Shown here: positions 936 through 12,422 of the stretch, in pieces
How positions within the stretch are numbered: the first letter of the stretch is position 1
Layout of the letters: each line of letters starts with the position of its first letter
Source of the DNA: a virus
Lineage: Duplodnaviria > Heunggongvirae > Uroviricota > Caudoviricetes
Length of the DNA stretch: 14,445 bases
Virus record (IMG/VR): IMGVR_UViG_2529292722_000020
Direction: 5' to 3' (one strand)
Position numbers and translations under genes: made by a program
The notes under the pieces: model-generated
What the model saw: only the letters and a program-made list of their open reading frames with translations
The model's database searches: none
What the model was told of the DNA's origin: nothing

Positions 936-2147
936 TTAAATCTGCCCTGTATCTCGTGAGTCACTTGGTAATGGGCGTTTATTGGTTCGGCTTTCCAGTG
1001 CGCGGTTAAGCTGTGTCAGAAGCACAACAACGCAATCAAGCTCTTTGGCAAGGTTCTTCAGTCCTTTGGTGATCATGCCGTAAGCAAGGTCGTTGCGATC
1101 GGCCTTTTCAGCGGTCATTAGTGTCAGGTAATCGACCAGAATCATGCCAACACATCCTTTTTCTCGCTTGATTCGACGGCTTTCGCTGACGATTTGAGCC
1201 AGAGATAATCCCGGCGTGTCGTCGATGTAAAGCAGGTCGATTTCACTCAAGCGATTGGCTGTTTCGATCGCCCTGTTGAAGTCACCATCGTAATCACCCT
1301 GATAGCCGTCATCAGCGTCATTTGTCGCCGGAAGGTAAAAAATATTCGGGTTAACACCTGACTTCTGTCCTACCAGTTTTTCCAGTATCTGGTCACCGGG
1401 CATTTCAAGGCTGAACATCAGAGCGGGCTTTTTCTCATGCACTGCGCAGTTGATTGCCATCTGGCTGTATAGCGTCGTTTTCCCCATCTTAGGGCGAGCG
1501 CCAATGACAAACAGAGAGCCTTTCACCAGACCTTTCGGTGACAGCATCCTGTCCAGCGATGGGATCCCTGTGCTCATTCCCCGTTGTTCGCCTGATGGGT
1601 CAAATCGCTTCTCAAGGTCGCTAACCCAGTCTTCCATGACCTCGCCAAATGAGCGAAGGCCGCGACGCGATCCGGTTTTTGCATGGTCTGTCAGTTGCGT
1701 GAAAATCGCCTGAATAGCTTCGTACTTCTGCGTCGCAGTCATTCCGTTGCGGGAATAGAGCAATTCCGTCGCTTCAGTCATGCGGTTGATGGCGTAGCGT
1801 TCCATTGCGGTTTCGCGAACCTGCATTGCATAGGCAACGATGTTTGCGGCGCTCGGCGTGTTCTTTGCGATCTCAGCGATATAAGCAAAACCGCCAACAG
1901 ACGCCGTTAACGATTTACGCTCCAGTTCATCGAAAAGCGTCAGGCCATCTACTGGCTTTTGCTCCCGGTGCATTCTGGTTATTTCTTCGAAAAGGATTTT
2001 GTGTGATCGGCTGTAAAATGAATCAGGCTTCAGCATCGCCAGAACTTTCTGGACGCGCTCACTGCTGTCATCATCCAGAAGCAATCCACCAATCACCGCC
2101 TGCTCTGCCTCGATGCTATGGGGCGGCGCATAAAAATTATCGGTCAT
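936..2147 (-). CDS. Replicative DNA helicase, DnaB family (phage P22 gene 12 type), prematurely terminated
   Basis: PPHSIEAEQAVIGGLLLD N-terminal motif and Walker A GARPKMGKT. Start chosen at ATG 2147-2145 (MTDNFY) behind a GAGGGTG Shine-Dalgarno rather than the GTG at 2162. The product lacks about 70 C-terminal residues of the RecA-like domain. Confidence 0.8.
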   Translation of the reverse strand: MTDNFYAPPHSIEAEQAVIGGLLLDDDSSERVQKVLAMLKPDSFYSRSHKILFEEITRMHREQKPVDGLTLFDELERKSLTASVGGFAYIAEIAKNTPSAANIVAYAMQVRETAMERYAINRMTEATELLYSRNGMTATQKYEAIQAIFTQLTDHAKTGSRRGLRSFGEVMEDWVSDLEKRFDPSGEQRGMSTGIPSLDRMLSPKGLVKGSLFVIGARPKMGKTTLYSQMAINCAVHEKKPALMFSLEMPGDQILEKLVGQKSGVNPNIFYLPATNDADDGYQGDYDGDFNRAIETANRLSEIDLLYIDDTPGLSLAQIVSESRRIKREKGCVGMILVDYLTLMTAEKADRNDLAYGMITKGLKNLAKELDCVVVLLTQLNRALESRTNKRPLPSDSRDTGQI

Positions 2148-3027
2148 CGTGTTCACCCTCACGAACTTTCAGGTAGGTATTATCGTTAAGCAGGAAATCA
2201 AATCCCTTTTTGTGCCAGACGGTTCCTCGCTGATGGTTTGGGCGCTCTTCGAACATCCATCGGCAATTTTCGCCTACGTATCTCAAATAATTTCTCCAGT
2301 CCTGCATCGTGAACCCATGCCCGTCAAGCTGGCGGGTTATCACTCCGGCTTTGCGCCAGAACGTTCGGATCTGGTTTTTACGCTTGTCATTCAGTGCGCG
2401 GATTCTTGGCGCTTCAGGAAGGATTTCGTGGTAAGCATCGACAACATCCTGACAGCTAACGGAAGGTTTTTTCTTGTCAGACTTTTTGTCTGCTGTGGCA
2501 CTCTCTAATACGTCAGTATTAGAGATATTATTTATATTATTGTTTATGGACAACCGTTGGACAACCGTTGGACAATCTCCGCTGAGAGCCTCGCCATTAC
2601 TGGTGTTTGCGTTGGACAACCGTTGGACAACCGTTGGACAATTTTTTGCCTGAAAATCGTCATATTTAACGATTGTAAACAGGCTAAATTTCTTCCCCAT
2701 CGAGCAAATATTAAGCATCCCTTTCGACTCAAAAGTCCGTAATAAGCTCCGAACTTTGTTGTCGGGGATGAATGTTTCTCTGACCAGCGACGGGCGTCCA
2801 GTTATCATCTGACCGCGATCAACAGTTATCGGCCCGATATCCGTATTGACGACAGTAGATTCGTGATTAGCCTTGAGGATTAAGTGAAGCCAAAGATGTA
2901 CTGCCTGAGAGTCCTTATAGAGCCTGCTGTCCATAAACTGGCGGTGTATATAGGCATACCCCATACTGGATGCCTCCTGATGTTGTACAGGGTTATGCCT
3001 GTAATCAGCTAACTTAACGACGCCCAT
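2137..3027 (-). CDS. Replication initiator, lambda O / P22 gene 18-like, with origin iterons inside the coding sequence
   Basis: Position immediately upstream of and overlapping the helicase gene; the iterons encode a repeated CPTVVQRLSN peptide, as lambda ori does within O. Confidence 0.8.
   Translation of the reverse strand: MGVVKLADYRHNPVQHQEASSMGYAYIHRQFMDSRLYKDSQAVHLWLHLILKANHESTVVNTDIGPITVDRGQMITGRPSLVRETFIPDNKVRSLLRTFESKGMLNICSMGKKFSLFTIVKYDDFQAKNCPTVVQRLSNANTSNGEALSGDCPTVVQRLSINNNINNISNTDVLESATADKKSDKKKPSVSCQDVVDAYHEILPEAPRIRALNDKRKNQIRTFWRKAGVITRQLDGHGFTMQDWRNYLRYVGENCRWMFEERPNHQRGTVWHKKGFDFLLNDNTYLKVREGEHDDR
2546..2644. repeat. Replication origin iterons: two clusters of three 11-bp direct repeats (TTGGACAACCG), flanked by an AT-rich tract at 2505-2545
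   Basis: Direct reading: clusters at 2546-2578 and 2612-2644, separated by about 33 bp. The AT-rich block taatacgtcagtattagagatattatttatattattgtttat lies on the side expected for a lambda-type ori. Confidence 0.65.
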
Positions 3028-3175
3028 GTTTCACTCCTGCTTTGGCTAGTCTGTAAACACCAACAAGGCGCTCTGCGAACGCCCTGTTATTTGCTGCGGC
3101 TACCACTAATCCCTCAGGTGAATCAGGGTGTCGAATCTCTTCTTTTTCCTGGTATTTCTTACGACGTTTTGTCAT
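3014..3175 (-). CDS. Small basic protein (53 aa, MTKRRKKYQEKEEIRHPDSPEGLVVAAANNRAFAERLVGVYRLAKAGVKHGRR) between cII-like and O-like genes
   Basis: ATG at 3175-3173 sits 5 nt behind an AGGAG Shine-Dalgarno; the stop at 3016-3014 overlaps the O start by 14 nt. Found by manual translation. Confidence 0.35.
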   Translation of the reverse strand: MTKRRKKYQEKEEIRHPDSPEGLVVAAANNRAFAERLVGVYRLAKAGVKHGRR

Positions 3176-3207
3176 AATTACTCCTGTGGATTGATCCAGT
3201 AATTCCC

Positions 3208-3504
3208 TCAGAATTGCATATCAATTTGCTTAAAATCCTCGGTGGCGGCCGGGGATTTTTTCTTTGTGATTTCATCAAGCGCATACTTAAAAGCCCTGCT
3301 AATTGGACTGATGTCTGATGCCATTCCGAAAGCACACAAGACCGAAGCAATAAACCGCCAGTCCGTTCTGCTTATCTTCGATTCATGACAACCAATCATC
3401 TTTGCCAGACCGCGCTGAGTAAGCGTTGACAGGTTGATAAGTAAATCTGTTTCAGCGCGATCAACGTCACGCTGTGTTGGCTTGCTGTAGCTTGCTTGTG
3501 CCAT
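3208..3504 (-). CDS. CII-like transcriptional activator (P22 C1 type)
   Basis: C-terminus KKKSPAATEDFKQIDMQF resembles lambda CII KKRPAATERSEQIQMEF; gene lies downstream of cro in the rightward operon. Confidence 0.8.
   Translation of the reverse strand: MAQASYSKPTQRDVDRAETDLLINLSTLTQRGLAKMIGCHESKISRTDWRFIASVLCAFGMASDISPISRAFKYALDEITKKKSPAATEDFKQIDMQF
3237..3262 (+). terminator. Antisense intrinsic terminator inside the 3' end of the cII-like gene (candidate OOP-like RNA terminator)
   Basis: Stem CCTCGG (3237-3242), loop TGGCGG, stem CCGGGG (3249-3254, one G-U pair), then TTTTTT at 3257-3262, on the strand opposite cII. Confidence 0.45.
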
Positions 3505-3572
3505 TTGTTAATTTTCCTATATTGATATTGAGTTATAGCGGCACACCCAATGGATTTGCCGCTGATGTTTGC

Positions 3573-3614
3573 TCACCCGGTTAGAGGTGAAAGGCCAGAA
3601 CTGTTAAAGAGCAA
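3573..3614 (-). promoter_or_regulatory. Candidate nutR: boxA (GCTCTTTAACAG) plus boxB hairpin with CUAACC loop
   Basis: Minus-strand boxA at 3612-3601 directly after the cro stop; hairpin UCACCU-CUAACC-GGGUGA at 3590-3573. Confidence 0.45.
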
Positions 3615-3619
3615 TTTGC

Positions 3620-3805
3620 TTATGCCGCTTGGCGGTAAGCACTTTCTTGATACTTCAGGGCGCCAGCTGTAACGATTTCCAATCGATAGGCGTCTTTCTC
3701 TGGGATAACTTCTTTCCACTGAGAGACTGCTGCATCGCTAATGCCTAGTGCTTTAGCAACAGCACGCTGGGTTCCGAAGTGGTCAATAACATCTTTTTTG
3801 TACAT
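3620..3805 (-). CDS. cro: Cro repressor, P22 type
   Basis: 61-aa product MYKKDVIDHFGTQRAVAKALGISDAAVSQWKEVIPEKDAYRLEIVTAGALKYQESAYRQAA matches my recollection of P22 Cro almost residue for residue; divergent from the repressor gene. Confidence 0.9.
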   Translation of the reverse strand: MYKKDVIDHFGTQRAVAKALGISDAAVSQWKEVIPEKDAYRLEIVTAGALKYQESAYRQAA

Positions 3806-3885
3806 AGACTCGCTCCGAAATTAAAGAACACTTAAATTATCCACCAAAGGAATCTTAAGTCAAGTTTATTTAAGATGTCTTAACT
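3806..3885. promoter_or_regulatory. Right operator region (OR) with divergent PR/PRM between cro and c2
   Basis: Palindromic sites with TTAAGA / TCTTAA half-sites: ATTAAAGAACACTTAAAT near 3820-3838 and TTTAAGATGTCTTAA at 3869-3883, the latter abutting the c2 ATG. Confidence 0.6.
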
Positions 3886-4536
3886 ATGAATACACAACTG
3901 ATGGGTGAGCGTATTCGCGCTCGCAGAAAAGAACTCAAGATTAGGCAGGCTGCCCTTGGCAAGATGGTTGGCGTGTCTAATGTTGCTATTTCCCAATGGG
4001 AGCGATCTGAAACTGAGCCCAATGGCGAAAACCTATTGGCCTTAGCCAAGGCTTTGCAGTGCTCCCCTGATTACCTGTTGAAAGGAGAGGATAGTCTTTC
4101 AAACATTGCCTATCACAGCAGGCATGATCCAAGAGGTTCGTATCCTCTAATTAGTTGGGTAAGCGCAGGATGTTGGATGGAAGCTGTAGAGCCATATCAT
4201 AGGCGTGCAATAGATAACTGGTACGACACAACGGTAGATTGTTCTGAAGACTCTTTTTGGCTCGACGTTAAAGGCGATTCAATGACTGCCCCGGCAGGAC
4301 TGAGTATTCCTGAGGGGATGATTATTCTCGTCGACCCAGAAGTCGAACCACGTAATGGAAAGCTGGTAGTCGCCAAACTTGAAGGGGAAAACGAGGCGAC
4401 ATTCAAAAAGTTAGTTATTGATGCCGGTAGAAAATTCCTGAAACCACTCAATCCACAATACCCAATGATTGAAATCAATGGGAACTGTAAAATCATTGGC
4501 GTTGTCGTTGATGCCAAGCTAGCAAACCTTCCTTAA
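3886..4536 (+). CDS. c2: Phage repressor, P22 c2 type (N-terminal HTH domain plus C-terminal LexA/S24-like autocleavage domain)
   Basis: 216 aa; N-terminus MNTQLMGERIRARRKELKIRQAALGKMVGVSNVAISQWERSETEPNGENLLALAKALQCSPDYLLKG matches remembered P22 c2; the C-terminal half has the GDSM...K serine-lysine dyad pattern. Confidence 0.9.
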   Translation: MNTQLMGERIRARRKELKIRQAALGKMVGVSNVAISQWERSETEPNGENLLALAKALQCSPDYLLKGEDSLSNIAYHSRHDPRGSYPLISWVSAGCWMEAVEPYHRRAIDNWYDTTVDCSEDSFWLDVKGDSMTAPAGLSIPEGMIILVDPEVEPRNGKLVVAKLEGENEATFKKLVIDAGRKFLKPLNPQYPMIEINGNCKIIGVVVDAKLANLP

Positions 4537-6101: not shown

Positions 6102-6206
6102 TACGAGTAAGCACTGTGTATTCATTCCAACGAGTGAATACACGGAGCAATGTCGCTCGTAACTAAACAGGAGCCGACTTGTTCTGATTATTGGAAATCT
6201 TCTTTG

Positions 6207-6229
6207 CCCTCCGATGTGGGGGGCTTTTT
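6207..6229 (+). terminator. Intrinsic terminator closing the moron unit
   Basis: CCCTCC-GATGT-GGGGGG hairpin (one G-U pair) followed by CTTTTTA. Confidence 0.5.
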
Positions 6230-6295
6230 ATATGCATACCAATAACGCTTCACTCGAGGCGTTTTCGTTATGCAATCAAACAGAAGGAGCATCCT

Positions 6296-12170: not shown

Positions 12171-12242
12171 CAATCCTCGCACTCGCGGGGATTTCTTTTA
12201 TCTGAACTCGCTACGGCGGGTTTTGTTTTATGGAGATGATAA

Positions 12243-12410
12243 ATGCACTTCCGAGTCACAGGTGAATGGAATGGAGAGCCATTCGACAGGGTCGTCGAAG
12301 CAGAGGGCATCAACGACTGCTATAACCACTGGATGATATGGGCGCAGATAGCGCATGCAGACGTAACCAATATTCGAATTGAAGAACTGAAAGAACACCA
12401 AGCCGCCTGA
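12243..12410 (+). CDS. Hypothetical small protein (55 aa)
   Basis: GGAG Shine-Dalgarno 7 nt before ATG 12243; followed directly by an intrinsic terminator. Confidence 0.35.
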   Translation: MHFRVTGEWNGEPFDRVVEAEGINDCYNHWMIWAQIAHADVTNIRIEELKEHQAA

Positions 12411-12422
12411 TGGCGGTTTTTT
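12403..12422 (+). terminator. Intrinsic terminator
   Basis: CCGCC-TGAT-GGCGG hairpin followed by TTTTTT. Confidence 0.65.

Follow-up and report, generated by a model that had tools for sequence, protein, structure and literature searches.

The stretch of DNA analysed here (14,445 nt, IMG/VR record IMGVR_UViG_2529292722_000020; hereafter the window) comes from a lambdoid prophage, whose immunity and replication region it represents in reverse orientation. A cI-like repressor gene (positions 3886–4536, + strand), a P22-type cro (3620–3805, − strand), cII (3208–3504, − strand; Pfam Phage_CII, 1.3e-32; phrog_191), an O-like initiator gene (2137–3027, − strand) and a DnaB-like helicase gene (936–2162, − strand) stand in the lambdoid order, and positions 2900–3900 are 97% identical to HK629 and, over the immunity part, 95% identical to phage 21. 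The best sigma-70 match of the whole window, TTGACT-16-GATAAT (10/12, at 3836–3863 on the − strand), lies between cro and cI and is the expected pR of an imm21-type immunity region.

Between cII, the putative antisense target considered below, and the O-like gene lies a 162-nt ORF (3014–3175, − strand) encoding 53 aa of the HK97 gp53 family (phrog_1331, E 1.4e-37), a real phage gene family. It begins just past the cII stop, and its AGGAG Shine–Dalgarno sequence (3181–3185, read on the reverse complement) abuts the 5′ end of oop. The first-pass annotation had placed a 53-codon ORF with a strong Shine–Dalgarno sequence in the interval 3237–3262; the ORF and its ribosome-binding signal are real, but the ORF adjoins that interval rather than lying inside it. 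An ORF on the + strand at 3242–3388 (48 aa, GTG start) is regarded as a chance ORF antisense to cII.

The replication genes have two further features. The helicase gene (711–2162 in full, − strand) is broken by an in-frame TAA at 936–938 (…DTGQI*QDCDYWVGIHRE…), and the ORF at 711–917 is the C-terminal remainder of the helicase (phrog_19); the TAA looks like a nonsense mutation, and the prophage may therefore be replication-defective. The O-like gene contains two clusters of three 11-bp units, GTTGGACAACC, at 2547–2587 and 2613–2653, 66 bp apart; in the protein they appear as the repeated peptide CPTVVQRLS, and they are probably the iterons of this module's origin. They lie about 550–650 bp upstream of pO.

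The oop RNA gene and its terminator

The oop RNA was among the first antisense RNAs described. On the + strand of the window, positions 3170–3262 align base for base with pO–oop–tO of lambda, with the oopRNA of phage 21 (AJ237660) and with the interval of HK629 annotated as "similar to coliphage lambda oop RNA"; the aligned sequences do not differ in the extended −10 TGTCATAAT, in the start region or in the T-run. Both ends of the RNA gene (77 nt, 3186–3262) were taken from its homology to lambda oop (38675 to 38599): position 3186 corresponds to lambda base 38675, and the length of 77 nt places the 3′ end at 3262. The alignment over the 77 nt is ungapped, with 58 identical positions and 19 substitutions. 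The predicted start lies 7 nt past the extended −10, as in lambda, and the overlap with cII, 55 nt at 3208–3262 (52 coding nucleotides and the stop codon), is equal to that of lambda. The 77-nt OOP RNA, its 52/55-nt overlap with cII, the RNase III mechanism and the suppression of CII activity have been described previously (PMC5869508, PMC3349717, PMC2327240). Positions 3168–3200 on the − strand, ACTGGATCAATCCACAGGAGTAATTATGACAAA, match exactly the consensus of the 33-bp "high homology region" of lambdoid phages (PMC3349717), which here contains the −10 of pO, the 5′ end of oop, and the Shine–Dalgarno sequence and ATG of the downstream gene.

Full-length homology, antisense geometry relative to cII and a conserved intrinsic terminator, three marks of the lambdoid oop family, are found at this locus, and we consider it very probable that 3170–3262 is the pO–oop–tO unit of an E. 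coli lambdoid prophage, antisense to cII as in lambda. The earlier proposal of an OOP-like regulatory RNA is supported by the alignment with lambda, phage 21 and HK629, which shows it to be an oop homologue proper; the comparison with lambda oop suggested at that time gives a base-for-base match, the same length and the same cII overlap. A search of the window against Rfam found no family at gathering score, and under permissive settings positions 3100–3350 gave sub-threshold chance matches, none of them to an oop model; since not even a sub-threshold match to such a model appeared, Rfam 15 seems to be without one.

The terminator scan, folding and stem alignment place the intrinsic terminator tO at the 3′ end of this unit. 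Its hairpin at 3232–3259 on the + strand, AAAATCCTCGGTGGCGGCCGGGGATTTT, has 12 pairs, 5 of them G-C, a loop of 4 nt and the tail TTCTTTGTGA, with TTCTTT directly 3′ of the hairpin. The interval 3237–3262 comprises the G+C core CCTCGG/CCGGGG (3237–3254) with the loop GGCG (3244–3247), followed by A, six T residues (3256–3261) and C. The hairpin lies opposite codons 81–90 of the 98 codons of cII, within the last 18, and the scan together with the Pfam assignment of cII confirms the initial observation of a + strand hairpin and T6 run inside the final codons of this − strand gene. The window contains 34 terminator-like sites, about twice the 14.9 ± 4.5 found in shuffled sequences, and tO ranks second in strength among them. 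Other strong terminator-like hairpins on the + strand are clustered at 6206–6224 and 6244–6263, and at 12172–12193, 12204–12223 and 12400–12419.

Folding of the 80 nt at 3186–3265 gives two hairpins with −30.4 kcal/mol (z = −4.1 against shuffled sequences). The upstream one, the predicted stem-loop I (3186–3229, + strand; pairs 1–10/35–44 and 14–20/26–32 of the RNA), is predicted in every variant of oop, and this support is thermodynamic. Its registers in the window type (…ATATCAA…) and in the lambda type (…ATCTGGA…) are shifted by 4 nt; in tests of both registers no covariation in register was found for stem-loop I, each register fitting its own sequence group only. Its 5′ arm was largely fixed by the search pattern with which the loci were collected.

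The putative pO region and its upstream junction

The extended −10 of pO, TG-T-CATAAT, at 3170–3178 on the + strand, was identified from the alignment, and in lambda the scan calls a promoter at this place, with TG preceding the −10. It lies in the first codons of the 53-aa ORF, and its CAT doubles as the ATG of that ORF on the opposite strand. Conservation of the −10 is not an independent proof of a promoter, because the same bases form the ATG and spacer of the downstream ORF. A candidate −35, read from the sequence at 3149–3155 (+ strand), is either CTGGTA (spacer of 18 nt) or TGGTAT (spacer of 17 nt), with only 2–3 of 6 matches to TTGACA. The consensus promoter scan recovers pO of lambda (TTGAGT-17-CATAAT) and finds no promoter at pO in the window, and for this reason the putative pO is treated as a promoter of the extended −10 kind whose −35 is unproven. 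Upstream of −19 the window sequence, including the −35, is unrelated to that of lambda. Since this −35 region is also too weak for the consensus scan, we speak of transcription from the window copy as presumed. For the + strand promoter that the first-pass annotation had suggested looking for, the extended −10 identical to that of lambda speaks in favour, and the negative consensus scan and the weak, non-conserved −35 speak against. A sigma-70 promoter with an extended −10 can work without a good −35.

A 45-bp pO fragment of lambda is inactive, and 94 bp reaching into gene O are required (PMC5869508); the O sequence of the 94-bp fragment is absent from the window. An OOP transcript was detected by RNA-seq in the P22-like prophage BTP1 (PMC7067206), which lends some support to activity in contexts other than that of lambda. 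A LexA-box-like motif, CTGT-N9-CAG, was found by motif scan across the start of oop (3184–3199, + strand), in the same place as in lambda; the window has 3 matches against 1.4 expected, and a motif this short is not significant alone. A LexA site within lambda oop–pO is cited in PMC5869508, and we infer that its exact position is equivalent to that of CTGT-N9-CAG.

Three unrelated upstream sequences, namely lambda gene O, the HK97 gp53-type ORF (the context of the window) and the P22 orf48-type ORF, are joined at one base, about position 3167 (−19), to a block made up of oop and its −10 in 122 loci (L001–L123). Both non-lambda contexts, themselves unrelated, have CCTGGTA equally far from the −10 (window 3149–3154; orf48-type loci such as L042); it encodes Tyr-Gln on the opposite strand and could be a common −35-like element or protein motif. 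The body of oop is a mosaic in which the blocks GATAGAT/GATTGAT, GACC/TCCC and CTGGA/ATCAA and the terminator types occur in many combinations. Recombination seems to use the oop unit as a linker that joins immunity to replication modules.

Conservation of the terminator stem

Scanning IMG/VR with a pattern tied to the −10 and the 5′ end of oop gave 120 loci; with the window and reference phages, 122 copies with 31 distinct oop sequences could be scored. The hairpin and T-run are kept in all 122, one of them with a stem mismatch, one with an interrupted T-run and one with a T5 run. Loss of the hairpin in related phages had been named at the outset as the observation that would speak against a regulatory RNA, and what we find is the hairpin kept throughout, with compensatory changes. 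Four main terminator types occur: the lambda type, ACGCTCGG-TTGCCG-CCGGGCGT; the window type, ATCCTCGG-TGGCGG-CCGGGGAT; that of phage 21, with the lambda stem and a longer loop; and a fourth, GTCCCCGG-CGGCCA-CCGGGGAT. The hairpin is likewise retained in more distant Lederbergvirus (Salmonella) and bat-faeces phages, in one of them as a further stem variant.

Among the 31 distinct sequences, standard pairs fill 98.7% of stem cells, against 36.6–61.3% when the 3′ partner is slid by 1–3 columns. In two stem pairs both partners have changed: C-G has become U-A and G-C has become C-G, each in 12 of the 31 sequences. The two pairs are adjacent and may derive from a single exchange event. These compensatory changes replace amino acids of the cII product, R by S and ERS by EDF (cII tail KKRPAATERSEQ in lambda, KKSPAATEDFKQ in the window), and the terminator loop encodes AA, VCK or VAA in cII, depending on the type. 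As the stem is kept at the cost of replacements in the CII tail, protein coding alone does not explain it, which argues for selection on the RNA or terminator structure itself. The alignment is a clean case of compensation in an RNA hairpin that is paid for with amino-acid replacements in the overlapping cII tail.

Probable mode of action, alternatives and relation to known phages

By analogy with lambda, RNA polymerase would start at about 3186 from the extended −10 promoter within the opening codons of the 53-aa ORF and transcribe 77 nt convergently to the pR operon, and a stop at the tO hairpin and T-run would release the RNA. The transcript has full complementarity to the last 52 coding nucleotides and stop codon of the cII mRNA and to the next 22 nt and could then pair with all of these, so that the duplex would end one base short of the Shine–Dalgarno sequence of the next gene. 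Cleavage of the duplex by RNase III would lower CII and favour lysis, and activity of pO might also restrain pR transcription into the origin. Cleavage, reduction of CII and a push towards lysis are documented only in lambda (Krinke and Wulff 1987, 1990, as cited in PMC5869508 and PMC2327240), and for the window copy RNase III cleavage and CII reduction are presumed from that precedent. Even in lambda the physiological weight of OOP is debated, and little or no role was assigned to it in CII removal after SOS induction (PMC2327240).

We regard it as possible, though doubtful as the main role, that the unit acts chiefly through its promoter, convergent pO interfering with pR and thereby tuning the origin in the O-like gene, with the RNA largely a by-product. 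In lambda, pO reduces transcription from pR, and replication suffers in pO− mutants (PMC3985674), plasmids with oop and ori iterons silence the replication of phages with a lambda replication module (PMC3349717), and the window has its iteron-like repeats upstream of pO. However, OOP supplied from a plasmid in trans abolishes CII activity (PMC5869508, PMC3349717), and therefore the RNA itself is active; replacing the body of lambda oop while keeping pO and tO did not leave the inhibition phenotype intact (PMC3349717), and a defined RNA product agrees with the selection on the terminator stem. The promoter role and the RNA role do not exclude each other.

That the window copy is instead a silent relic, its hairpin and −10 persisting by descent and by the constraints of cII and of the downstream translation signals, and its pO inactive without the −35 and O sequence of lambda, appears very unlikely to us, despite the weak −35, the inactivity of the 45-bp lambda fragment pO45 (PMC5869508), the overlap of the −10 with the Shine–Dalgarno–ATG region of the 53-aa ORF and the nonsense codon in the helicase gene. 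Against it, one oop body occurs in three unrelated upstream contexts, always with TG-N-CATAAT and a paired terminator, and the stem changes are both compensatory and protein-altering. The absence of a good −35 need not, from what is established for sigma-70, silence an extended −10, and the sequence is identical in the plaque-forming phages HK106 and HK022. Detection of OOP in BTP1 (PMC7067206) points the same way. It is hardly conceivable that the hairpin arose by chance or as a by-product of protein coding, or that it terminates the − strand cII transcript. The A-run before the stem does give four T residues after the hairpin on the reverse complement, yet the scan scored no − strand terminator at the hairpin and pR transcripts must run on into the replication genes, while conservation, compensatory changes and homology to a mapped terminator rule out chance.

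Taken as an antisense oop unit, the window copy is an ordinary and already known member of the lambdoid oop family. Its allele and the adjacent 162-nt ORF were tabulated for HK97, HK022, 933W and VT2-Sa (Hayes et al. 2012, PMC3349717), and oop-like sequences have been remarked on in Stx phages (PMC5488031); for direct evidence of an oop transcript in 933W and Stx phages, our literature search returned comparative and review statements only. With positions 3140–3290 as the query, matches were obtained in 1165 of 5426 complete E. coli genomes (about one in five), with up to 4 copies per genome, and the window variant is present at no less than 99% identity in 622 E. coli genome records. PGAP leaves oop unannotated in the matching genomes, because neither Rfam nor PGAP appears to have a model for it. 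The importance of the locus beyond annotation is small, one practical point being that the gene is missing from both resources.

The sequence types (lambda, the HK022/Stx type of the window, phage 21 and the fourth) might in addition be putative specificity classes, each RNA knocking down only cII of its own class. We think this unlikely, and lambda OOP is still active on imm21 cII despite five mismatches (PMC3349717); if true, it would mean cross-talk at the RNA level among co-resident and incoming lambdoid phages, many E. coli genomes holding several lambdoid prophages.

Lambda oop is placed and oriented as in the window with respect to cII and the gene that follows it, and has the same extended −10, length and cII overlap, and the same two-hairpin plan with a terminal intrinsic terminator. 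It differs from the window copy by the 19 substitutions in the oop body, by C-G and G-C pairs where the window terminator stem has U-A and C-G, and by gene O sequence upstream of −19, including the −35, where the window has the 53-aa ORF. Phage 21 and HK629 share the immunity region of the window (cro and cI 95–97% identical) and the same oop unit, but phage 21 has a longer terminator loop (CTTGCACA) and HK629, unlike the window, a lambda-type oop body. The 162-nt ORF beside oop in HK97 (PMC3349717) is the same as that of the window. HK106 is 100% identical to the window over 3140–3290, and HK022 and VT2-Sakai are 100% identical over 3166–3290, with no difference in the RNA itself; upstream of −19 these two carry the P22 orf48-type sequence, whereas the window carries the gp53 type.
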